DNA of 64,000 nt from a bacterium (GTDB taxonomy: Bacteria; Patescibacteriota; Minisyncoccia; Phycocordibacterales; UBA2100). The number at the start of each line of letters is the position of its first letter. The first letter of the stretch is position 1. The notes under the pieces were generated by a model. The model did not search any database. It was not told the origin of the DNA and saw only the letters and a list, made by a program, of their open reading frames with translations. Made by a program: the position numbers and the translations under genes. Shown piece after piece: positions 7,421 to 60,815 of this stretch. The stretch is from assembly GCA_016789445.1 (NCBI GenBank), contig JAEUQT010000001.1, positions 131,603 through 195,602 of the forward strand, in the 5' to 3' direction.

Positions 7421-7753
7421 CTAGTGGACACTTACGATCTCCAGCGCGCCTTCCATGGCATGACTGAGTGCAGCCTGTCGCGTATCAGTGAGTGCGATGG
7501 GCGTGCCGTCCGCCGCATGGAGTGCGAAGAGATTGATACCCAATGGGACTTCTTCAAGCGCTGGAAATCTCTTAAGCGCCTCCTCGGAAGATATCGTGGT
7601 AAGGTACGCGACCTGTCCACCACCGAGCCGAGCAAGCTCGATCTCAGTCATAACAGGCGCGTGGTGAGGTTCCTTGTGCCGTTTCCTCAGGCTTTTCTTC
7701 TTGGCCGAATCAGTTTTCCGAGCACGCATGGCAACCTCCTTTCCGTACGGCAA
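7421..7753 (-). CDS. Hypothetical protein
   Basis: 110-aa ORF with a basic N-terminus; family not recognised. Confidence 0.3.
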   Translation of the reverse strand: MPYGKEVAMRARKTDSAKKKSLRKRHKEPHHAPVMTEIELARLGGGQVAYLTTISSEEALKRFPALEEVPLGINLFALHAADGTPIALTDTRQAALSHAMEGALEIVSVH

Positions 7754-16502: not shown

Positions 16503-16629
16503 TAACGGCTCGTGTCTCTACACTTTTGAGCCCGCTCTTGATTTCATCAAAGCGAGCGCGGTCTACCTCCCTGAATTCTAGATTGTGAATTTCCATATTA
16601 CATGCGAGTACGCCAGACAAGGATACTTT

Positions 16630-16748
16630 GGAAACCCTCGGTTTTCCAACGGTCGCCGAAGCGACCTGCCTTCCGACACGGGGAACTCCCGTTCCCCGAC
16701 CCCCTCCCTATCCAAGTCTGGCAACAAATCTCGTTGCACTCAATTTGT
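16630..16748 (+). repeat. Family B tRNA-3'-flank element (GAAACCCTCGGTTT ... CTTCCGACACGG ... GC hairpin ... CCGACCCCCTCCC ... inverted copy of tRNA-Gln 3' end)
   Basis: Shares ordered motifs with 21886-21989. It ends in an 18-bp perfect palindrome formed with the tRNA-Gln 3' end (CCAAGTCTGGCAACAAAT / ATTTGTTGCCAGACTTGG). Confidence 0.6.
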
Positions 16749-21800: not shown

Positions 21801-21885
21801 AATGCGGATATCCTACGCGAAAATGCTGGATTTTCAATCTTACGGTCCGGGATTTCACTGCTCGCCGTATTCTCGGCTGCGCTTT

Positions 21886-21989
21886 CGAAACCCTCGGTTT
21901 CGAATAACTTCCGACACGGAGGGGGTCCGGTGGGTCCCCCTCCGACCCTCCCCCGTTCAATCCCGGTCGGGCCTCTCGCTACGCTCGTG
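21886..21989 (+). repeat. Family B tRNA-3'-flank element (second copy) between the two tRNA-Thr genes
   Basis: Ordered motifs shared with 16630-16748: GAAACCCTCGGTTT, CTTCCGACACGG, GC hairpin GAGGGGGTCC...GGTCCCCCTC, CCGACCCTCCCC, then an inverted copy TTCAATCCCGGTCG of the tRNA-Thr(GGT) T-arm. Confidence 0.55.
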
Positions 21990-24832: not shown

Positions 24833-25666
24833 ATGCTCGGTGTCATCCTGATCGCAGTCGGCGAACTCTTCGCCGAAGCAAGCGCTACGATCGGCCGCTA
24901 CGAAGTGAAGCACCGTAAAGAGACCCTCTATACGATGGGGTTCCTGAGCGGCTTCTGGGCCACGGTCTTCCTCGTCATCTACAGCTTCACGTGGGGAGAA
25001 TTCAGGTTTTCGTACGATAGTCTTCCGACATTCGGAGCGCGACTCGGCCTCGAGATAGCGCTTCTTCTTTTCTCATTGCACGCGATGGTTCAGGCCGATA
25101 GGAGCACGTTCGCGTTCCTGCGCACGTTCACTATCCCCCTGCTTCTTGCGGCAGACCTCGCGCTTGGATACCCGCTTTCCATCAATCAGGTATTCGGTGT
25201 ATCTCTTATCGTCATCGCGCTCCTCATCCTTCTTCTCAATCACGGCCTCAGCCGTCGCGGCAAGCTGCTCTCGCTCATGTCGGCGATCTGCGCGGTAGGG
25301 ACGATCACGCTCTACAAGTACAACATCACGTATTTCAATTCAGTCGAAGCCGAGCAGACATTGATGCACGTGTTCCTGCTGGTTGCGATCGCAGCAGCCG
25401 CAAAGCTTCAGACCGGCGAAGATGTCACCCGTCGCATGTTCAAACCGGTCTTCTTCGCACAATCGCTTCTCGCCGGTGTCGCGACCATGCTCTTCAGTTT
25501 CGCGTTCCTGTTCGCCCCGGCCTCTGTCATCACGGCGGTGAAGCGGTCCTTGGAGATCCTTGGTGCAATCGTCTTCGGTCGCAAGTATTTCCATGAGAAA
25601 CACGTGCTCCTGAAACTGCTCGCCTGTGCGCTCGTTGCGGGAGGGATCGGGCTGATGGTGGTGTAG
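24833..25666 (+). CDS. DMT superfamily (EamA-like) transporter
   Basis: About 10 predicted TM helices arranged as two 5-TM repeats. Confidence 0.5.
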   Translation: MLGVILIAVGELFAEASATIGRYEVKHRKETLYTMGFLSGFWATVFLVIYSFTWGEFRFSYDSLPTFGARLGLEIALLLFSLHAMVQADRSTFAFLRTFTIPLLLAADLALGYPLSINQVFGVSLIVIALLILLLNHGLSRRGKLLSLMSAICAVGTITLYKYNITYFNSVEAEQTLMHVFLLVAIAAAAKLQTGEDVTRRMFKPVFFAQSLLAGVATMLFSFAFLFAPASVITAVKRSLEILGAIVFGRKYFHEKHVLLKLLACALVAGGIGLMVV

Positions 25667-25685
25667 GTTTGAGTGACGGGACTCG

Positions 25686-25902
25686 GTCACAGATATTTCT
25701 TGCGCCGTCGGACAGATTTTTTCGCGACCATAGGCATCGTCTCGGCCAAGAGCTCATTCGTCGCCGTCGCTCCTCATTCCTCTCGGCCCTGATTTTGCGA
25801 CCCCGTCTGCTGACGGGTCCGCCGCAAAATCTTTCGAGTCCCGCCACTCTGCTGAAAAACGCAACAACCCCGACGGCATGCGTCGGGGTTGGCGTTTTGC
25901 GC
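25686..25902 (+). repeat. Family A tRNA-3'-end-associated miniature element, copy 1 (degenerate), at tRNA-Asp
   Basis: Begins GTCACAGATA plus a hairpin. Contains an inverted copy TTCGAGTCCCGCCACTC of the tRNA-Asp T-arm/acceptor and a terminator hairpin CCCCGACGGCATGCGTCGGGG. Flanked by a 15-bp direct repeat GAGTGACGGGACTCG (25671-25685 and 25903-25917) equal to tRNA-Asp nt 56-72. Confidence 0.7.
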
Positions 25903-25973
25903 GAGTGACGGGACTCGAACCCGCAGCCTTTCCCGTGACAGGGGAATGCTCTAACCAATTGAGCTACACCCGC
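25900..25973 (-). tRNA. tRNA-Asp (anticodon GTC)
   Basis: Manual fold: acceptor GCGGGTG/CACTCGC (G4-U69), anticodon stem TTCCC/GGGAA with loop CTGTCAC, T-arm GCGGGTTCGAGTCCCGT, discriminator G. Confidence 0.85.
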
Positions 25974-26088
25974 AAGTGAGGAGTAAAGAGGATGCTAGCA
26001 TACTCTTTCTCCGAGCGCAGCGGGTGTATGAGCTCACGATTACACCCGCATTCAGAGGCGGCTAAGCCGCATGAGCCCGTACAATATA

Positions 26089-26352
26089 TCACTTCCCTCC
26101 CCTTTTCAAACCCTTCTTCCCTAAGAGATGCTTCGCCACATCCATGCCGGAAACCAAGCCCCAGACAGCATTCACCACCATGAACGGCAGCACTCCCGAA
26201 TGGTACGCATACGTAAATAGGCCTATGGATGCGACGAAGTTCAAGAGGTCGTAGGTAAGGCTTTCCGCATCAAGTTTGCTCCACTCATTACCGACAAAGG
26301 CGGTCAGTGTAAGGGCCGCCGAGCCGATACCGATGATGTCTATAAACTCCAT
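26089..26352 (-). CDS. Small membrane protein (87 aa)
   Basis: Three predicted TM helices; hypothetical. Confidence 0.4.
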   Translation of the reverse strand: MEFIDIIGIGSAALTLTAFVGNEWSKLDAESLTYDLLNFVASIGLFTYAYHSGVLPFMVVNAVWGLVSGMDVAKHLLGKKGLKRGGK

Positions 26353-26387
26353 CTCTCTATTCTATCGTAGTGTCGAGGGTGGGGGTC

Positions 26388-26538
26388 GGTCACGAATAAT
26401 TTCTGTCCCGTCGGACAGAAATTTTCGCGACCCCGGCTCGCGGTCTCGCCTGCTGGCGAGACATCGCTCCGCCTTTCGACCCCCACACGCTGTGTGCGCA
26501 GGCACACAGCCCTCGACACAAATCCACTTCGTATATTT
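26388..26538 (+). repeat. Family A element, copy 2 (canonical), at tRNA-Met
   Basis: GTCACGAATAAT; hairpin ATTTCTGTCC-CGTC-GGACAGAAAT; core TTTTCGCGACCCCGGCTCGCG-GTCTCGCC-TGCT-GGCGAGAC-ATCGCTCCGCC. Then an inverted tRNA 3'-half mimic TTCGACCCCCAC[hairpin]CCTCGACAC. Flanked by a 19-bp direct repeat (26369-26387 and 26539-26557) equal to tRNA-Met nt 56-74. Confidence 0.8.
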
Positions 26539-26539
26539 G

Positions 26540-26613
26540 TGTCGAGGGTGGGGGTCGAACCCACGACCTTGGCTTTATGAATGCCACGCTCTAACCAACT
26601 GAGCTACCCCGAC
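26540..26613 (-). tRNA. tRNA-Met (anticodon CAT; elongator Met or lysidine-Ile type)
   Basis: Manual fold: acceptor GTCGGGG/CCTCGAC, anticodon loop TTCATAA, T-arm GTGGGTTCGACCCCCAC. Confidence 0.75.
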
Positions 26614-26723
26614 AAGTGAGGAACAAAATGAGGATATACCATATTCTCATTTTTTCCGAACGCAGTCGGGCGCATGAGCATGCGAGGACCCGACGTCCTG
26701 CCAAACGTATCATTTTAACGTGC

Positions 26724-27143
26724 TTATTTCAACGTTCCTTTTACGCTCTCGAAAAACTCCTTGTCCTTGGGATGCGTGAGTAATTTCGAGACGTCATCGA
26801 TCGGAACCCATCGCGCCTCGGGATTATCAGCATCGGTCGGTGCAAGCGCTTGCTGCAGGGTCTTATAGAGGAACATATGGATACGCTTCAGCTCACTCGT
26901 ATCCTCTCCCTCCCCGCCCTTACCGATCTTGTAGCGCTCGTACGACCCGAGGTCGCGAATGAACGCCAGCTGCGTGACGCCTGATTCTTCGATAATCTCA
27001 CGCTCCGCCGCTTGCTGCGGCGTCTCTCCCGGATCAACATGACCTTTCGGCAGAGACCACGAATCACCGCGCTGACTGACGACGATCACCTCATTGAGCT
27101 GGTTAAGCACGATACCTCCTGCGCTTTCGGTCACGTTCTGCAT
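26724..27143 (-). CDS. NUDIX hydrolase
   Basis: Nudix box GHVDPGETPQQAAEREIIEESG. Start trimmed to MQNVTESAGG (ATG 27141-27143); the listed 240-aa ORF runs on through the repeat/tRNA region and is not credible there. Confidence 0.75.
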   Translation of the reverse strand: MQNVTESAGGIVLNQLNEVIVVSQRGDSWSLPKGHVDPGETPQQAAEREIIEESGVTQLAFIRDLGSYERYKIGKGGEGEDTSELKRIHMFLYKTLQQALAPTDADNPEARWVPIDDVSKLLTHPKDKEFFESVKGTLK

Positions 27144-27164
27144 GGCGGTAGTATGCCATATGTA

Positions 27165-27421
27165 CGCAGGGCGGGCTTGGTCAAGAACATTTCTTGCTTC
27201 CGTCGAAGCAAGAAATTTCTCGGCCCTGATGTTGCGGGGGCGGGCTTGGTCACGGATAATCTTCGCGCCGTCGCGCGAAGATTTCCGCGACCCCGGCTCG
27301 CGGTTTCGCCCACTGGCGAAACATCGCTCCGCCTTGCAAGTCCAGCACGAAAAGCGCACCGGCGCTTTTCTCCCCGCGACTGCACAAACACAAAACCGCC
27401 CGTACGGCGGCTTTGTGTTTG
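27165..27421 (+). repeat. Family A element, copy 3 (canonical) plus a tandem partial unit (27165-27227), at tRNA-fMet
   Basis: Partial unit GGGCGGGCTTGGTCA plus hairpin ATTTCTTGCTTC-CGTC-GAAGCAAGAAAT. Full unit from 27247: GTCACGGATAAT, hairpin ATCTTCGCGC-CGTC-GCGCGAAGAT, core TTTCCGCGACCCCGGCTCGCG-GTTTCGCC-CACT-GGCGAAAC-ATCGCTCCGCC, inverted T-arm mimic TTGCAAGTCCAGC, terminators. Direct repeat TGTTGCGGGGGCGGG (27228-27242 and 27422-27436) equals tRNA-fMet nt 60-75. Confidence 0.8.
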
Positions 27422-27423
27422 CT

Positions 27424-27495
27424 TGTTGCGGGGGCGGGACTTGCACCCGCGACCTCCAGGTTATGAGCCTGGCGAGCTACTACTGCTCCACCCCG
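27424..27495 (-). tRNA. Initiator tRNA-fMet (anticodon CAT)
   Basis: Near-identical to the E. coli tRNA-fMet body (GCGGGGTGGAGCAG ... GCTCATAACC ... GGTCGCGGGTGCAAGTCCCGCCCCCGCAA) with an unpaired 1:72 position (A1/A72), the initiator hallmark. Confidence 0.75.
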
Positions 27496-27539
27496 CTATG
27501 AAGTGCGTAGTATACCTCACGAGGAAGTGTGAGGCAAAT

Positions 27540-44412: not shown

Positions 44413-44435
44413 AATTGCGGAGAGGGAGGGATTCG

Positions 44436-44582
44436 GTCACGGATAATTTTCTGCTGAAAATTTCCGCGACCCCGCCTCGTCGCCTACGCTCCTGCGACTT
44501 TCGAATCCCTCCGTTTCGCTATGCGAAACCGCCACCCTTTCGGGCGGCGCTCTCCGCAAAAAACTTGCGGGTCTCGTTTTTT
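44436..44582 (+). repeat. Family A element, copy 4 (variant), at tRNA-Ser
   Basis: GTCACGGATAAT; hairpin AATTTTC-TGCT-GAAAATT; TTTCCGCGACCCCGCCTCG; covarying hairpin GTCGC...GCGAC. Inverted tRNA-Ser 3'-half mimic TTCGAATCCCTCC[hairpins]CTCTCCGCAA. Flanked by a 21-bp direct repeat TTGCGGAGAGGGAGGGATTCG (44415-44435 and 44583-44603) equal to tRNA-Ser nt 56-76. Confidence 0.8.
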
Positions 44583-44585
44583 TTG

Positions 44586-44674
44586 CGGAGAGGGAGGGAT
44601 TCGAACCCTCGAGACAGTTTGACCCGCCTAACACGTTAGCACCGTGCCGCCTTCGACCACTCGGCCACCTCTCC
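44586..44674 (-). tRNA. tRNA-Ser (anticodon GCT), long variable arm
   Basis: Manual fold: acceptor GGAGAGG/CCTCTCC, anticodon stem GCACG/CGTGT with loop GTGCTAA, extended variable arm, T-arm GAGGGTTCGAATCCCTC. Confidence 0.8.
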
Positions 44675-50982: not shown

Positions 50983-51148
50983 GTCACGGATAATTCAATG
51001 AGTGTCAATATCGAGTCCCCAGGGATAATTTTGTCGCCGTCGCTCCAAAATTTCCCCGGGCCTGGCTCGCGGTCGCGCGTACTCGCGCGACATCGCTCCG
51101 CCTCGGACCAGTAAACAAAAACAGCGCTCAATGCGCTGTTTTTGATTC
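50983..51148 (+). repeat. Family A element, copy 5 (composite/degenerate), at tRNA-Ile
   Basis: GTCACGGATAAT at 50983, then a second GATAAT at 51023 with hairpin ATTTTGTCGC-CGTC-GC..CAAAAT; core TTTCCCCGGGCCTGGCTCGCG-GTCGCGCG-TACT-CGCGCGAC-ATCGCTCCGCC; partial inverted copy of the tRNA-Ile 3' end (CGGACCAG); terminator AAACAGCGCTCAATGCGCTGTTTTT. No clean direct repeat found. Confidence 0.6.
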
Positions 51149-51225
51149 TGGTCCGCCCTCTTGGATTCGAACCAAGGACCGCAAAGGTATAAGCTTTGTG
51201 CTCTAACCAACTGAGCTAAGGGCGG
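51149..51225 (-). tRNA. tRNA-Ile (anticodon TAT), CCA encoded
   Basis: Manual fold: acceptor CCGCCCT/AGGGCGG, anticodon stem CAAAG/CTTTG with loop CTTATAC, T-arm CTTGGTTCGAATCCAAG, discriminator A, then CCA. Confidence 0.7.
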
Positions 51226-56730: not shown

Positions 56731-56743
56731 CAGCCAATGCAAG

Positions 56744-56912
56744 CCGCCTTCCAGGCGGCTTTTGCATTTGCATTGCGACGGTGGAGATGAAGAAAGCGCC
56801 TGCGCGCTTTCTGCGGGGGTCTCGAAAGGCGGAGCGCTGTTCCGACAGCAGGCGGAACCGCGAGCCGGGGTCGCGGAAATTCAAAGGCGACGGCGTTTGA
56901 ATTATCTGTGAC
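56744..56912 (-). repeat. Family A element, copy 7 (inverted orientation), at tmRNA gene 3' end
   Basis: Reverse complement reads GTCACAGATAAT, hairpin (TTCAAACGCC-GTC-GCCTTTGAA), TTTCCGCGACCCCGGCTCGCG-GTTCCG-CCTGCTGT-CGGAAC-AGCGCTCCGCC, T-arm-like TTTCGAGACCCCCGC, a hairpin, then TCATCTCCAC (copy of the tmRNA 3' acceptor strand). Direct repeat CGATTCCGC (56713-56721 and 56913-56921) equals the tmRNA T-loop from nt 56. Confidence 0.75.
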
Positions 56913-56972
56913 CGATTCCGCCGCCGATATTCCTTCATGCAACCTTATGTGTTTTGATACGTCCACTGAGAT

Positions 56973-58298
56973 ATGCCGAAGCGATACTGGTGGAAGGATG
57001 CGAAGATATACGAGCTCTACGTCGATCGCTTCGCGGGGAATTTCCAGAACCTGACGGCACAATTGGATTACCTGGAGCGTCTTGGCATCAACGCACTCCA
57101 CATCCTCCCCCACTACCCGTCGCCCATGGCCGATGGCGGCTATGACGTGATGGAATATCTCAACGTCCGGCCGGAACTCGGCACGATCGAGGATTTCGAT
57201 ACCTTCCTCAAAGAAGCGCACCGCCGCGATATCAAAGTCATCATCGACTTCGTCCTCAATCACGTCTCAGAACATCATCCTTGGTTCTTGGAGGCGCGAT
57301 CATCGAAAGACAACAACAAGCGCGATTACTTTTTATGGAGCGAGAGCGGACACGAACTCGCCCTCGGTTGGAATGCCTTCCCCGACATCAAGCCTGGCAA
57401 TTGGATATTCAACGAAGAGACGCAGGACTACTACTATGCGACCTTCTATCCGCAGCAGCCGGATCTGAATTGGGACAATCCGGAAGTCTTCGCAAGCATG
57501 ATGCAGAACATGGATTTCTGGGCCGGCCGCGGCGTGGACGGCTTCCGCTTGGACGCAGCGGTGACGCTCATCAAACGAGACGGCACGCTCTCGAAAGGAT
57601 TGCCGGAAACGCACCAGCTCATCAAACGCATCCGCAAACACTTGGACACGAAATTCGGCGGCGAGATCGTCCTTCTTGCTGAAGCGCATCAGCACGTCAA
57701 AGAGATGAAGACGTATTTCGGGGACGGCGACGAATGCCATCTCGTGTACCATTTCTCACTCACCGAGCAGCTCTTCCTCGCTCTTATGCGCAATGATCGC
57801 ACCGAACTCGATGCGATGCTTGAGGAATCACGCGACATCCCGGAGAACTGCCAGTGGGCGATCTTTCTGCGCAATCACGACGAACTCTCGCTCGCGACAC
57901 TCGCCCCTGAAGTACGCACCGAGCTCATCACCTATCTTGATCCGAAGAGCGAATATCTTTTCAATGGCGGCGCAGCGACCGCCAAGAGGTTGGGCAGCAT
58001 GTTCGACGAAGCGAAGCTGCGCGAAGCGATTTCTCTCCTCTACTCGCTTCCGGGGGCGCCTATCATGTACTACGGCGACGAGATCGGCATGCAGAATCTT
58101 CCACGTACGGAAGGCGTGATCGACAGCCGCGTGTACGTCCGCGGTGAATTCGATTGGCTTGAGGCCGGGCTGCAGCGCAGTGATCCTGATTCCCTCTACA
58201 ACTTCACGAAGGGTGTCATCCGTAAATCACTCTGGCCATATAAGCGGGATTTCAATTCACCTCCCCCAGAAGAGGGATCGCCAAGCGACGACGAGTAG
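56973..58298 (+). CDS. GH13 alpha-amylase family protein (trehalose synthase/amylosucrase-like)
   Basis: GH13 motifs: DFVLNHVS (region I), GVDGFRLDAA (region II, catalytic Asp), EAHQ (region III Glu), FLRNHDE (region IV). The N-terminus WKDAKIYELYVDRFAG resembles TreS. Confidence 0.7.
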   Translation: MPKRYWWKDAKIYELYVDRFAGNFQNLTAQLDYLERLGINALHILPHYPSPMADGGYDVMEYLNVRPELGTIEDFDTFLKEAHRRDIKVIIDFVLNHVSEHHPWFLEARSSKDNNKRDYFLWSESGHELALGWNAFPDIKPGNWIFNEETQDYYYATFYPQQPDLNWDNPEVFASMMQNMDFWAGRGVDGFRLDAAVTLIKRDGTLSKGLPETHQLIKRIRKHLDTKFGGEIVLLAEAHQHVKEMKTYFGDGDECHLVYHFSLTEQLFLALMRNDRTELDAMLEESRDIPENCQWAIFLRNHDELSLATLAPEVRTELITYLDPKSEYLFNGGAATAKRLGSMFDEAKLREAISLLYSLPGAPIMYYGDEIGMQNLPRTEGVIDSRVYVRGEFDWLEAGLQRSDPDSLYNFTKGVIRKSLWPYKRDFNSPPPEEGSPSDDE

Positions 58299-59556
58299 TC
58301 TCACCTTTGAAGAGTTGCCGCGTCCGCTCCGGCATGTCTCCTCGCTCGCCAAGATGCGCGCCGAATTTCATCGCCTGGAAACTCGAACCGAGGAAGACTG
58401 CGTGTTTACCGTATCGTTCCGATATCGCATCCACGCTCTCGAACACCATCTTCAATCCTTGGGATTCTTCCACTTTGCCGAAAAGATCGAGCTGAAGACT
58501 GTCCGCGGGGCGCAGCTGCGCGAGGGTCACGCCGCTCGCACGATACAGCTTCCCGTTCTCGAAAACCTGCGGGAAGAATTTAGCGACCTCGCGCAGGACA
58601 TCCTGCGGGACATTCGTGGGGTGCGGGAGCTTCACTTCGATACCGTGGTATCTGAAATCCTGTGTCTTGAGAAAGAAGAACACGCGATCACTCGCGAGAT
58701 TCCATCGGCGCGCCTTGATGCACGCATTCTCGACATTTTTGGAGAGCTGACTGAAGATAAACTTCGCATCGCGCAATGGTGGCGTGAAGGTCTTGGTCTT
58801 CTGGATGCTCTGGTAGCTGGTCTTCTTTTCCGTCGTGAGTGGATAGATGGCTTCGCCATTGAGCTCCCGCCAGATCTCCTGCACCGGCTTCGAAACTTTC
58901 GCACGCACCCATGGTTCGTTCTTGCGCGCAAAATCGAGCGCGCTCTGAATACCGAACTTATTGAGATACGCCGCAGTGTTTGGCCCGATCCCCCATACAT
59001 TCCCTACCGGCAGCTTTCCGAGAAATTTTGATGCGTCGCTGAGCGGTATCGAGGTGAGACCATCAGGCTTCTTCCATTTCGAACCGACCTTCGCCAGGAC
59101 TTTCGTCGCCGAGAGACCCACACTGAACGTGATGCCGAGCTTCACCTGCAGCTCCTGCTTAATGGAATGCGCCATGTCGTGGTAGTTCATCCGATTCACG
59201 CGGCGCATACCGGTGAGGTCCGCGAAGCATTCATCAATGGAATACTCCTCGACGGCAGGCGTGTAGCGACGCACGATCTCGTACATACGCTCTGAATATA
59301 GACTGTAGGTCTCGTAATCCGACGGCAGCACGATCGCATCTGGGCACGCTTCAAGAGCTTCGCTTAATTTGACCCCGCGCTTCACGCCGCGACGCTTCGC
59401 CTCGTAGGTGCACGCAGAGACGATGCCGCGCTCTTTGCCGGTGATGACCGGCTTACCGCGCAGCTTTGGATTCTTTGCCACTTCGACTGCAGCAAAGAAA
59501 GAGTCACCATCCACGTGCAGGATGGCTCTGGGATACGAGTATGACTTACCCCACAT
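58252..59556 (-). CDS. dinB: DNA polymerase IV (Y-family translesion polymerase DinB)
   Basis: ILHVDGDSFFAAVE palm motif, Y-family fingers and little-finger regions; 434 aa. Confidence 0.85.
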   Translation of the reverse strand: MWGKSYSYPRAILHVDGDSFFAAVEVAKNPKLRGKPVITGKERGIVSACTYEAKRRGVKRGVKLSEALEACPDAIVLPSDYETYSLYSERMYEIVRRYTPAVEEYSIDECFADLTGMRRVNRMNYHDMAHSIKQELQVKLGITFSVGLSATKVLAKVGSKWKKPDGLTSIPLSDASKFLGKLPVGNVWGIGPNTAAYLNKFGIQSALDFARKNEPWVRAKVSKPVQEIWRELNGEAIYPLTTEKKTSYQSIQKTKTFTPPLRDAKFIFSQLSKNVENACIKARRWNLASDRVFFFLKTQDFRYHGIEVKLPHPTNVPQDVLREVAKFFPQVFENGKLYRASGVTLAQLRPADSLQLDLFGKVEESQGLKMVFESVDAISERYGKHAVFLGSSFQAMKFGAHLGERGDMPERTRQLFKGETTRRRLAIPLLGEVN

Positions 59557-59576
59557 AGGCCATGTACGTCCGGACT

Positions 59577-59645
59577 GTCACGGATAATTTTCTGCTGAAA
59601 ATTTCCGCAACCCCGCCTCGACACCTAAAGTGTCTCCGGCCTTGC
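59577..59645 (+). repeat. Family A element, copy 6 (orphan partial copy, no adjacent tRNA)
   Basis: GTCACGGATAATTTTCTGCTGAAAATTTCCGCAACCCCGCCTCGACACCTAAAGTGTC, nearly identical to the first 60 nt of copy 4. Lies in the intergenic gap between the dinB start and the mazF-like gene. Confidence 0.65.
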
Positions 59646-59682
59646 GAAGCTCCATGTATTCGCTTCTCACCCCAGACCATAG

Positions 59683-60168
59683 CTACCTGAACTTAAGCGT
59701 GTAGGCTGGCTTGAATGCAGGAAGTGGTGCGTACCGCGAAGTGCGTGGTAGCGGCGTCCGCATGCGTGATGGCCGGATCTGTTTCGCAGGCTTTACCGGA
59801 TTCGTCTCGGCAAGAAATTCCATGACCGCGAGATTCACCGTAGCGAATTGCCGATCACTGATGCGACCGAGACGACGGATAAGCTGGTCCTTCCGCAGCA
59901 TGCGCATCTGCGAAAGGGTTCCGGTGCGGTTCGCACCCTTGAGTGACGTAAGAAAATAAAACGGGGTTTCCTTACCGCTCGCACGCGACGTAAGCGGCAA
60001 TCCCCAGAACGTATCGGTACCGAGCGTACGGAACACCAAGACCGGCCTCTCAGCTGCAGCGTCGGTTGCCGAAGGCACCGAACACCACCAGATATCCTGC
60101 GCACGATATTTCACTTCTCGTACGCGCGCTGTCTTCTTCGAAAAAATGTGGGAAAGCTGTTTAAACAT
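59683..60168 (-). CDS. PemK/MazF-like toxin domain protein (putative mRNA interferase) with C-terminal Pro/Arg-rich extension
   Basis: Pattern D.WW ... ERPVLVFRT ... GLPLTS ... typical of the PemK/MazF fold; longer than canonical at 161 aa. Confidence 0.45.
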   Translation of the reverse strand: MFKQLSHIFSKKTARVREVKYRAQDIWWCSVPSATDAAAERPVLVFRTLGTDTFWGLPLTSRASGKETPFYFLTSLKGANRTGTLSQMRMLRKDQLIRRLGRISDRQFATVNLAVMEFLAETNPVKPAKQIRPSRMRTPLPRTSRYAPLPAFKPAYTLKFR

Positions 60169-60187
60169 ATGCTGGTTGGTTCCGCTA

Positions 60188-60760
60188 CTAATACTTCCGT
60201 ACGACGCCCGTGACTACTGCTTCGACTTTGAACGATTCTGTCGGATAAATGTTGCTGAACTTCTCATTCGCCGGCTCCAGATAATGATTCCCCTTCTTGT
60301 CCTGTCTCAGGTATTTCATGGTGTACTCGCCGTCGACCATCGCGATCACGATCTGCCCGACCTTGTACGTGTTGCGACGCTCGACGACTACCATGTCTCC
60401 CGGACGGATCCCCGCATCGATCATGGATTCGCCTTTTACTTTCAAGATGTAACTCGATTCCTTATTCGGCGTCAGGAACTCGTCGAAATCCATCGTATCG
60501 AGCAGCTCCTCCTCCGCTGCCGACGGAAAGCCCGCTTCGACTAAGCCAAGGAGAGGGACACCTCCTCCGAAATTTCCGGGAGAAAGACGGCCCTGTCGGT
60601 CTTTGACGACCACACCCTCGTCGACAAGTTTTTCGATGAGCTTGAACACAGCGTTCTTGGATCTAAAACCCGTGAAGACCATGATCTCCTTGTAGCCCGG
60701 GAAACGCCCATGCTTCTCATAAAACGCGACCAACTTCTGTTTATAGTGCTCATACGTCAT
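60188..60760 (-). CDS. lexA: LexA repressor (S24 peptidase)
   Basis: N-terminal wHTH; C-terminal S24 domain with Ser (GESM) and Lys (KVGQIVIAMVDGEYTMKYL). Start set at MTYEHYKQ (60760) so the SOS box lies upstream; the alternative start at 60808 would overlap the box. Confidence 0.8.
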   Translation of the reverse strand: MTYEHYKQKLVAFYEKHGRFPGYKEIMVFTGFRSKNAVFKLIEKLVDEGVVVKDRQGRLSPGNFGGGVPLLGLVEAGFPSAAEEELLDTMDFDEFLTPNKESSYILKVKGESMIDAGIRPGDMVVVERRNTYKVGQIVIAMVDGEYTMKYLRQDKKGNHYLEPANEKFSNIYPTESFKVEAVVTGVVRKY

Positions 60761-60799
60761 ACATGTTTTCCCTAGTAATTCCTTATGGAGTTCAGTGTA

Positions 60800-60815
60800 G
60801 TGAACCATGGTTCAC
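60800..60815. promoter_or_regulatory. Putative LexA operator (Cheo-box-like GTGAAC-N4-GTTCAC perfect palindrome)
   Basis: GTGAACCATGGTTCAC lies 40-55 nt upstream of the proposed lexA start; it matches the Gram-positive-type SOS box core GAAC-N4-GTTC. Confidence 0.55.

Follow-up and report, generated by a model that had tools for sequence, protein, structure and literature searches.

We describe here a structured sequence element, termed family A, in a 64,000-nucleotide stretch of a Patescibacteria genome (GenBank assembly GCA_016789445.1, contig JAEUQT010000001.1, positions 131,603 to 195,602 of the forward strand; the whole stretch is called the window below). Family A belongs to a strand-specific, structured, non-coding module that lies between repeats of a tRNA 3' end, turns over between strains and carries no mobility gene. 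Our favoured reading, held with about even confidence, is that family A forms the folded core of an insertion module, cassette-like and non-autonomous, in the 3' trailers of tRNA and transfer-messenger RNA (tmRNA) genes of Patescibacteria. The module is probably a mobile or exchangeable cassette; that it moves specifically by a recombinase acting on a folded single strand, as analogy with other elements would suggest, is a tentative idea that may well be wrong.

In the window, the modules are 150-250 nt long and are found behind almost every tRNA gene, with a folded core unit of ~105 bases. The initial annotation had reported three consecutive tRNA genes (Asp, Met and fMet), each followed by a miniature element at its 3' end, and further copies at tRNA-Ser, at tRNA-Ile, at the tmRNA gene and as an orphan. 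The three genes and their elements are confirmed, and a covariance model of family A, built on 45 copies out of 42 genomes, recovers all of these sites as seven full copies, together with two partial copies that consist of hairpin P3 only (Table 1). Six of the seven full copies directly follow the 3' end of a tRNA or tmRNA gene and share its strand. The score is strongly strand-dependent, reaching 115 bits in the sense direction compared to no more than 23 bits in antisense. It should be mentioned that the elements had been correctly described, but as read on the plus strand; only for the copy at the tmRNA gene is this the sense strand. The CGTC loop in that description is the reverse complement of the P3 loop CGACG. 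The motif GTCACRRATAAT, with at most one mismatch allowed, occurs 8 times in the window versus 0.79 expected, a number reached in 0 of 100 shuffles; CGCGACCCCGGCTCGCG is likewise enriched, and the enrichment of ATCGCTCCGCC by itself is not significant in the window. The enrichment of GTCACRRATAAT, the alignment and the covariance model bear out the earlier suggestion that the elements are conserved across loci and are not unrelated trailers. A hairpin resembling a terminator, with a T-run, separates tRNA and core in many of the copies, four of them in the window, which argues against obligatory co-transcription.

The tRNA-linked copies usually follow one order: the tRNA gene's 3' end (X1), a trailer or terminator, an exact complement of the tRNA end (X'), a core of ~80 nt ending in GTGAC, and a direct repeat of the tRNA end (X2). 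X2 starts directly after GTGAC, with repeat lengths in the window of 15 (Asp), 19 (Met), 15 (fMet) and 21 nt (Ser). X' lies directly before the core, which it abuts immediately in >100 genomes, and in some copies it is split by an extra hairpin, P0, with a CTGC loop. The pairing of X' with X2 forms the outer helix P1, a double-stranded replica of the tRNA gene's 3' end, and X' is able to pair with X1, the real tRNA end, as well as with X2. Both sequences differ at every tRNA and include trailer bases past the discriminator, as in CTCTCCGCAAAAAA / TTTTTTGCGGAGAG behind tRNA-Ser. Because X' and X2 extend beyond the discriminator, they were copied from genomic DNA and not from a mature CCA-ended tRNA.

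The link between each module and its own tRNA is specific. An X2 match of at least 10 nt to the cognate tRNA was found in 30 of 87 tRNA-motif pairs, compared to 1 of 418 mismatched control pairs, and an X' of at least 10 nt is present within 300 nt downstream of 53 of the 203 tRNAs in the fetched loci and the window, compared to 2% in controls. The direct repeats at tRNAs are about 7 to 27 nt long, the longest (27 nt) extending into the trailer. In repeat class A, the repeat starts exactly at C56 of the T loop and runs a few bases past the discriminator; in repeat class B, which is distinct from the core family B described below, it starts at the last acceptor bases, CAC(A)AA, and likewise extends a few bases beyond the discriminator. 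P1 of the class A copies reproduces the 3' strands of the acceptor and T stems plus the discriminator, and P1 is kept even where X2 has drifted from the tRNA, for example behind the tmRNA gene. The fMet family A module is common to the window and L016, which comes from a genome with the annotation Candidatus Kaiserbacteria and whose adjoining DNA shows ~72% nucleotide identity to that of the window, and X1, X' and X2 have changed together between the two (CCCGC in the window and CCCAC in L016, as read from the sequences).

On the tRNA-sense strand, the conserved core has the form (G)AAAG - GNCGGAGCG - variable hairpin - CGCGAGNCGG - GGTCGCGRAAAT - variable hairpin - ATTATYYGTGAC. The alignment of the 45 copies gives, as its consensus fold, a three-way junction of the outer helix P1 and two hairpins, P2 and P3. 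Compensatory double changes were found in 26 of the 37 consensus pairs. The fraction of paired cells is 92.8%, compared to 74.3% in column shuffles, and 332 cells are doubly changed, compared to 97 in the shuffles, with 0 of 500 shuffles reaching the observed values. When the 3' partners were slid by 1-3 columns, pairing fell to 32-46% of the cells. The P3 base has an unvarying sequence that includes one invariant G·U, an invariant bulged A and a further position occupied by G·U or G-C; in P2, a GGA/GA internal loop is conserved. Family A comprises two subtypes. In type I, an AGCA loop is on P2 and a CGACGG loop on P3; in type II, the loops are reversed (CGACGG on P2, AGCA on P3) and P3 is short. 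The occurrence of the same two loops on swapped hairpins suggests that the combination of loops and not their position counts, by way of a tertiary contact or a common ligand. Compared to shuffled sequence, the tRNA-Met copy has a fold z score of -12.3 as RNA and of -11.4 as sense-strand DNA. These scores indicate that the structure is real and strand-specific, and its formation in RNA or in single-stranded DNA is alike compatible with the data.

The core is widespread. A scan of one genome per species with the pattern GGTCGCGRAAAW N(8-32) WTATYYGTGAC matched at least 120 loci, and the core is present in at least 120 genomes; the motif loci and related contigs from other genomes are numbered L001-L134, with ~8 kb per related locus. 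Most matches are in Patescibacteria (Saccharibacteria, Paceibacterota, Kaiser-, Adler-, Nomura-, Taylor- and Zambryskibacteria), several are in Elusimicrobia and one is in a genome labelled Atribacteria. The window itself belongs to Candidatus Kaiserbacteria, and its CTP synthase has 90% identity to that of RIFCSPHIGHO2_01_FULL_56_24. A tRNA or tmRNA gene lies at most 300 nt upstream on the same strand in 83 of 124 motif matches from other genomes and on the opposite strand in only 2, in agreement with the association with tRNA 3' ends inferred in the initial annotation. The tRNAs served by the core have 34 different anticodons, and several tmRNA genes overlooked by ARAGORN were recovered with Rfam. 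The covariance model detects 129 copies in L001-L100 and 39 in 30 further loci (L101-L120, L122-L131), with two to four copies in many loci.

The Elusimicrobia copies examined are dispersed and have no tRNA upstream. Six of them, from six genomes, have a near-identical block in common in mostly different gene contexts, with only L061 and L092 having neighbouring gene families in common. The block stops sharply at GTGAC, and the copy-specific, unrelated flanks pair as P1 of a four-way junction. The idea of an undescribed miniature repeat is supported, not as a miniature inverted-repeat transposable element (MITE) specific to one genome but as a structured module across Patescibacteria and Elusimicrobia. 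It is noted that copies of a subtype named 'orph', to which the orphan copy of the window belongs, are convergent with the 3' ends of 5S rRNA genes in two Patescibacteria (L071 4109-4332, L075 991-1201), so that the association is not limited to tRNA and tmRNA genes.

In a search of the window against Rfam 15, only tRNA and tmRNA reach the gathering threshold; families A, B and C (see below for B and C) have no match, and the element regions give only noise far below threshold at E<=10. No match was found in the 2.9 million viral contigs of IMG/VR, none by blastn in plasmid and phage collections, and none in a metagenome scan with the tRNA-Met 3' half. The literature searches revealed no description of the element, the one paper on Patescibacteria tRNAs being concerned with group I introns in anticodon loops (PMC13011429). 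The proposal that the family is undescribed thus agrees with all of the databases and literature searched. The Pfam domain search, in which only window proteins were included, covered 60 of the 68 candidate open reading frames (ORFs) of the window and found no integrase, transposase, recombinase or reverse-transcriptase domain, in accordance with the earlier reading of the window. Clustering of 933 ORFs from 121 loci revealed no recurrent protein family adjoining the motif, the commonest being present in 12 of the 121 loci; the ten recurrent neighbour families that were inspected by eye look housekeeping (SmpB, RuvA, UvrC and others). No Y1 HUH transposase (TnpA) was seen in the 60 window ORFs or among the neighbour families of the 121 loci.

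Family A is not the only core found in this position. The tRNA-Gln and tRNA-Thr(GGT) genes of the window, which are without family A, carry the complement of their own 3' end followed by an unrelated conserved core, family B: GGGGTCGGGRAAC ... CCCGTGNNGGAAG ... AAACCGNGGGTTTC. Family B is also present in L029, L114 and L117. The core of family C, ...CCAATCGGGGTACTG (GGTACTG) - stem - CTGTAAG - stem, runs straight into the repeated T-loop/3' end of the tRNA and occupies the same slot in further Patescibacteria: L015 (tRNA-Ser ACT), L035 (tRNA-Tyr), L073 (tRNA-Val), L103 (tRNA-Leu), L046 and L077. This second core behind tRNA-Gln and tRNA-Thr, the duplication and inversion of the tRNA 3' end, the cross-phylum conservation and the polymorphism between strains go beyond what had been annotated earlier.

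The decisive evidence is the polymorphism between close relatives. Syntenic contigs were fetched via homologues of pyrG and gatA; by GatA identity, L127 and L128 are 96%, L129 93%, L130 91% and L131 90% identical to the window, and L124 is a strain with 97% PyrG identity whose tRNA-Gln is identical. Over 7,871 bp, L134 is 99.81% identical to the window. Near the 3' end of tRNA-fMet the similarity is lost, to be regained inside X2 at window position 27241. Between these breakpoints, in this one swap examined at strain level, 142 nt of family A in the window correspond to 92 nt of family B in L134, the latter with a terminator and an fMet-specific X' of its own. The same slot holds family B in L129 and an Asp-type variant of family A in L127 and L128. 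In L130 there is no more than a short scar. The tRNA-fMet gene of L131 (7784-7856) is inverted with respect to its conserved neighbours and has no downstream element. The tRNA-Met slot is occupied by family A in the window and by inverted family B in L127, L128 and L134; it is empty in L130 and L131. The tRNA-Gln slot holds family B in the window and L125 and family A in L124, and in L122 and L123 it holds family B with a nested 'orph'-subtype copy of family A inserted exactly at GGGGT^C without target duplication. The distal hairpin of family B is further split by an insertion of 44 nt (CGACCTCGCGACAATTTATTACCGGAGGAAGTACCCTTGCGGTG) in L122 (about 7640-7690) and in L123. The tRNA-Asp module is common to the window and L131. 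A comparison of strains for presence or absence of the elements had been suggested initially, and its result is that the same tRNA can be followed by family A, a variant of A, the unrelated family B or nothing. The polymorphism at the fMet, Met, Gln and Asp slots demonstrates that the modules are discrete, dispensable and interchangeable between core families, some being old and others recently exchanged.

Modules also accumulate. Tandem arrays of 2-3 copies are present in many of the roughly 130 loci examined, and L059 has three copies behind tRNA-Lys, one of them apparently interrupting another. Truncated units, in which the 5' part is lost, keep the GTGAC end and a further tRNA-end repeat (window positions 27165-27229, 25685-25729 and 50983-50999). 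In L005 (5736-6634), downstream of the tmRNA gene, two family A copies flank an opposite-strand gene for a 166-aa membrane-anchored protein, and the second repeat unit begins at the last bases of the tmRNA plus trailer. The arrangement looks like a cargo-carrying cassette.

The order of repeat, content, inverted repeat, hairpin tip and repeat is the one left by elements that recombine as a folded single strand (attC, attP), and it is the ground for proposing a recombinase. In the proposed mechanism, the X repeats would act as an att-like recombination site. Stacking of P3 on P1 would present a conserved arm and a target-identical arm on either side of the GTGAC^C junction; the conserved P3/P2 tip would be recognised by a recombinase whose gene lies elsewhere in the genome, and strand exchange with the tRNA gene would take place at the GTGAC^C junction. 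Once slots are occupied, whole modules may also be exchanged between strains and species via ordinary homologous recombination, since the tRNA and X2 flanks are conserved across species; the highly conserved tRNA and its copy X2 would provide the homology arms. The terminator-like hairpins upstream of the core fit a role at the DNA level and leave tRNA expression undisturbed.

A number of points weigh against this proposal. No recombinase or other trans-acting factor was identified in the 60 window ORFs or at the 121 loci, and the module junction is without the integron core site GTTRRRY. The states observed were alternative occupied, scarred and empty ones and in no case a virgin-site insertion, and homologous recombination alone could explain the exchange of A for B. 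The paralogues in the window have diverged via compensatory change and not by decay, and orthologues are retained from one species to another (the window has the fMet copy in common with L016 and the Asp copy in common with L131), which is the behaviour of a selected RNA and not of junk. Covariation that includes G·U pairs is as compatible with RNA as with single-stranded DNA. In addition, the model gives no account of the way in which X' would be derived anew on a module's move to a different tRNA.

Part of this evidence speaks for a functional tRNA-like small RNA, the foremost alternative reading, which we nevertheless consider unlikely on balance. Such an RNA would be made by read-through from the tRNA promoter, with a closing helix that imitates the acceptor and T arms; RNase P would cut its 5' side, RNase Z and the CCA-adding enzyme would finish its 3' end, its conserved junction would bind a protein or act in trans, and mobility would be secondary. 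Precedents are mascRNA, which is cut from MALAT1, and the rtT RNA, which is released from the E. coli tyrT operon by tRNA-type processing. The strong covariation with its invariant G·U and the second G·U or G-C position, the RNA fold z score of -12.3 for the tRNA-Met copy, and the co-orientation with the tRNA (83 same-strand versus 2 opposite-strand) are all consistent with it, as are the class A P1, which mimics the acceptor/T arm and is kept despite the drift of X2 at the tmRNA gene, and the compensatory divergence of paralogues together with the retention of orthologues across species. However, hairpins resembling T-run terminators separate the tRNA from the core in many copies, and P1 is not tRNA-like in class B and Elusimicrobia copies. 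The module is also dispensable, being missing in L130 and L131, and it is replaceable by a structurally unrelated core, which at tRNA-Met has the opposite orientation. The cassette and RNA readings are not exclusive, as a selfish module may also make an RNA.

Mobility could have other origins as well. It is improbable that the elements are the paired ends of an IS200/IS605-type single-strand DNA transposon (a palindrome-associated element), with the Y1 HUH transposase encoded elsewhere. One strand would be excised and inserted 3' of a short target like GG(G/T)T without target duplication; this target rule is obeyed by the nested copy of L122, and the T-loop junction GGTT^C has the same form. 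The sharp GTGAC 3' end adjoining a conserved hairpin foot and the strand-specific fold also suit a transposon end. The rule is contradicted by the tRNA-linked copies, which are flanked by direct repeats of up to 27 nt that are not produced by that transposon family. The target complement X' is without counterpart beyond the 4-nt guides of IS608, and no recurrent transposase-like neighbour emerged among the 933 ORFs of the 121 loci, nor any by Pfam among the 60 window ORFs. Distinct small ribozymes, self-cleaving or ligating, could also be behind the cores A, B and C, processing the trailer or mediating insertion and excision at the RNA level with X' as an internal guide docking the tRNA 3' end, a scheme to which we give little chance. 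The three unrelated cores are interchangeable in the same slot, and in other systems different classes of self-cleaving ribozymes substitute for one another; the invariant junction nucleotides and the invariant G·U adjoin the GTGAC^C boundary, and X' pairs with either X1 or X2. No Rfam ribozyme was matched even at E<=10, however, and no catalytic-core signature was recognised. Nesting, tandem copies and a cargo gene would need a reverse transcriptase to be explained, and group II introns are absent from the phylum according to a survey of 95 complete Patescibacteria genomes (PMC13011429). A very improbable origin is that of decayed att scars, left by tRNA-integrating prophages or genomic islands after deletion of the interior. 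Direct repeats of the tRNA 3' end are reportedly the classic footprint of tyrosine-integrase elements, and those of the modules do begin in the T loop or at the 3' end. The core, however, has RNA-like covariation and cross-phylum conservation, unlike att arms, and is directly abutted by X' in >100 genomes; there are 0 matches in viral contigs and none in phage or plasmid collections, and no integrase was found in the 60 window ORFs or as a recurrent neighbour at the 121 loci.

We have compared the cassette-like module to known systems. The nearest analogues each share part of its design and fail tested defining features. For integron gene cassettes, the features of the attC site are those described in PMC5027507. 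The two systems share the chromosomal order of repeat, content, inverted repeat, variable or branched hairpin tip and repeat, a one-strand fold with a conserved extrahelical base, ORF-less and ORF-carrying units, and tandem arrays. Integron cassettes use a recombinase outside the cassette, as is likewise proposed for the module. However, the repeat of the module is 7-27 nt of the host tRNA 3' end in place of the 7-nt GTTRRRY core site, and its tip (P2/P3) is conserved on a variable stem, whereas the tip of attC is variable. The module junction is GTGAC^C(G/A)A.. or GTGAC^CACAA.., compared to RYYYAAC ... GTTRRRY with crossover at G^TT in attC, and no GTTRRRY is present at the module boundaries. 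An intI/attI platform is absent, with no tyrosine recombinase in the 60 window ORFs and no recurrent neighbour family, and each tRNA offers its own docking site.

The CTX phage reportedly integrates a folded single-stranded attP via the host XerCD. As in the module, a hairpin of two inverted copies reproduces the double-stranded chromosomal target, direct repeats bracket the element, an inverted copy and a hairpin tip of about 90 nt are at one end, and the element has no recombinase of its own. The module differs in that its target is a tRNA gene and not dif, in its size of 150-250 nt without genes, and in that no phage form was found in the collections searched. Islands that integrate in tRNA genes are said to have integrase-less, cis-mobilisable derivatives and to use sublocations at the T loop or the 3' end. 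Their repeats, like those of the module, start from C56 of the T loop or from the acceptor end and reach just past the 3' end, leaving the tRNA intact, and tandem accretion occurs at the regenerated site. The direct repeat of a tRNA 3' segment at both ends, by which islands and prophages are recognised, is likewise found here (the 30 of 87 pairs versus 1 of 418 given above). In contrast to islands, the module is 100 to 1000 times smaller, has an added X' and a covarying core, and no integrase was found nearby; the same core serves tRNAs of at least 34 anticodons, and in place of kb-scale cargo there is one case of a 166-aa gene.

In the E. coli tyrT operon, 178-bp repeats each end in a 3'-terminal segment of the tRNA, and a small RNA is freed by tRNA processing. 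A repeated unit downstream of a tRNA gene that ends in a copy of the tRNA 3' segment is thus common to tyrT/rtT and the module; unlike the module, tyrT is without the inverted X', the conserved three-way junction and the cross-phylum spread. The two are related neither in sequence nor in Rfam, RtT not being among the Rfam E-value matches in 25600-27520, and rttR is mentioned in bioRxiv 10.1101/2024.07.17.603846. MITEs, REP sequences and palindrome-associated elements (Correia, RPE, REP/RAYT, IS200/IS605-derived) resemble the module in being short, non-coding, multi-copy, hairpin-rich, non-autonomous and polymorphic between strains. The module has, however, no terminal inverted repeats of its own, X' and X2 being copies of the tRNA and the Elusimicrobia flanks being copy-specific. 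It has no target duplication of fixed length (about 7 to 27 nt at tRNAs and none at GGGGT^C in L122), and no parent insertion sequence is seen in the 60 of 68 window ORFs or the neighbour families of the 121 loci. Its cross-phylum conservation with compensatory changes and its outer helix copied from the host tRNA also set it apart.

We conservatively class the modules as a variant of site-specific, non-autonomous insertion elements, with a substantial chance that they are of a new, target-mimicking kind. A more specific version of the latter is conceivable, although we hold it at less than even confidence: a new class of mobile element in which a gene-less module of 100-200 nt has a folded strand, DNA or RNA, that carries a double-stranded replica of its own target. 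It would dock via pairing or mimicry with the tRNA served and recruit a host enzyme by its junction; at least three cores would have converged on this design, with a mirror version at tRNA 5' ends.

If the modules are mobile elements, they would provide a way of targeting tRNA genes without carrying an integrase and with flanks that stay homologous across species, and they would bear on the movement of gene cassettes in organisms whose recognisable mobile elements are very few; it might even be possible to reprogramme the target-mimic design. With tRNA flanks highly conserved, the modules could cross species boundaries by recombination and could be one of the main forces behind the plasticity of tRNA loci in the candidate phyla radiation. 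If they are RNAs, they would form a new multi-copy class of tRNA-like RNA. Patescibacteria, with their tiny genomes, account for a large part of bacterial diversity, and a covarying core that has no Rfam match and ranges from Saccharibacteria and Kaiserbacteria to Elusimicrobia is a substantial feature, so far unannotated, of hundreds of genomes. Markers for strain-level variation are provided by families A, B and C, and the modules explain assembly breaks and odd tRNA flanks in metagenome-assembled genomes of this group.

Several further explanations were considered and rejected. Chance or ordinary trailers are ruled out by the enrichment, the covariance model and the conservation in at least 120 genomes, and a known RNA family by the lack, at E<=10 as at the gathering threshold, of an Rfam match for A, B and C. 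A phage or plasmid att region is ruled out by the 0 viral-contig matches and the lack of a blastn match in the plasmid and phage collections, and no linked protein partner was found in the clustering of the 933 ORFs or by Pfam on the 60 window ORFs. An essential cis-acting element for tRNA processing is incompatible with the empty slot in L130 and L131 and with the unrelated core in the 99.8%-identical strain. A degenerate second tRNA with a T-loop insertion is ruled out by the perfect complementarity of X' to X, including T-loop and trailer bases; X' is not a copy of the 5' strand of the tRNA either, the X' of the Met module having A-T where the tRNA has G·T. A retroviral-type primer-binding site is ruled out by the pairing of X' with the genomic trailer (N73-C-A-A...) and not with CCA. 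A T-loop intron does not agree with X1 completing a normal tRNA and X2 being often decayed (tmRNA, tRNA-Ile).

The coordinates of the features in the window are collected in Table 1.

Table 1. Family A and family B modules, their parts and adjoining genes in the 64-kb window.
Feature	Position	Strand	Details
Family A full copy	26380-26485	-	115 bits
Family A full copy	27240-27345	-	113 bits
Family A full copy	56816-56921	+	104 bits
Family A full copy	51009-51114	-	101 bits
Family A full copy, type II with short P3	44427-44510	-	59 bits
Family A full copy (orphan)	59572-59652	-	43 bits
Family A full copy, variant core	25736-25843	-	42 bits
P3-only partial unit	27180-27226	-	covariance model
P3-only partial unit	25686-25729	-	covariance model
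tRNA-Asp(GTC)	25899-25973	-	X1 = last 15 nt before GCG, 25903-25917
Asp module	25671-25898	-	terminator-like hairpin 25865-25891
Asp module X' GAGTGGCGGGACTCG	25835-25849	-	
Asp module extra P3-only unit	25685-25729	-	
Asp module X2 CGAGTCCCGTCACTC	25671-25685	-	15-nt repeat
tRNA-Met(CAT), elongator	26539-26613	-	X1 = 26539-26557
Met module	26370-26538	-	trailer loop, split X', P0, family A core with P2 and P3 ending in GTGAC, X2
Met module X', acceptor part TGTCGAGGG	26510-26518	-	
Met module P0 hairpin	26490-26509	-	CTGC loop
Met module X', T part GTGGGGGTCG	26477-26486	-	
Met module X2 CGACCCCCACCCTCGACAC	26370-26388	-	19-nt exact repeat of tRNA 3' end (26539-26557)
tRNA-Met(CAT), initiator-like (fMet)	27425-27497	-	X1 = 27424-27438
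fMet module	27230-27424	-	terminator-like hairpin about 27395-27410; core 27240-27345
fMet module X', T part GGACTTGCA	27335-27343	-	
fMet module X2 CCCGCCCCCGCAACA	27230-27244	-	15-nt repeat
5'-truncated second unit beyond fMet module	27165-27229	-	conserved in L134
P3-like hairpin of truncated fMet unit, GGCCGAGAAAT...TTCTTGACC	27179-27225	-	
Third, decayed tRNA-end repeat of fMet locus CAAGCCCGCCCTGCG	27165-27179	-	
tRNA-Ser(GCT) module	44415-44584	-	X' at 44550-44559 and 44502-44512
tRNA-Ser module X2	44415-44435	-	21-nt exact repeat of 44583-44603
tRNA-Ile(UAU) module	50983-51148	-	terminator, X', core 51009-51114, X2 decayed
tRNA-Ile module X' CTGGTCCG	51104-51111	-	complement of real tRNA end 51148-51155
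tRNA-Ile core P3 base CCCGGGG/CCCTGGGG	within 51009-51114	-	compensated change
tRNA-Ile module 3' fragment ATTGAATTATCCGTGAC	50983-50999	-	
tmRNA module	56732-56925	+	terminator, P0 hairpin with CTGC loop, core 56816-56921
tmRNA module X' GGTGGAGATG	56780-56789	+	
tmRNA module partial X2 CGATTCCGC	56913-56921	+	
Orphan copy, 'orph' subtype	59572-59668	-	start GAGAAGCGAATACATGGAGCTTCGCAAGG, end ATTATCCGTGAC; between MazF-like and DinB-like genes
DinB/Pol IV-like polymerase gene near orphan copy	58252-59556		
MazF/PemK-like toxin gene near orphan copy	59683-60168		
S24/LexA-like peptidase gene near orphan copy	60188-60808		
Family B module behind tRNA-Gln	16611-16746	-	X' ATTTGTTGCCAGACTTGGAT 16710-16729; decayed X2 16611-16624
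Family B module behind tRNA-Thr(GGT)	21882-21988	-	X' CCGACCGGGATTGAAC 21955-21970

The surroundings of the orphan copy (58252-60808) resemble a damage-response cluster. The tRNA-Ile gene at 51149-51225 has the anticodon UAU, which is uncommon in bacteria. In the remaining tRNA genes of the window, CCA is not encoded, and the discriminator is mostly followed by CA(A).

Mirror-image elements are present 5' of the tRNA-Asp and tRNA-Met genes of the window, at 25974-26075 and 26614-26700 on the minus strand. Their order is a copy of the first 6-9 nt of the tRNA, a loop, the complement of this copy, a promoter-like leader and the tRNA. In one element the copy is 9 nt long (GCGGGTGTA, 26041-26049) with its complement at 26020-26028, and in the other it is 6 nt. 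The promoter-like leaders are conserved and end in TCCTCACTT just before the tRNA. The 5' element of tRNA-Asp is missing in L131, and L130 has a different small insertion at that place, with the repeat ATGCGG.

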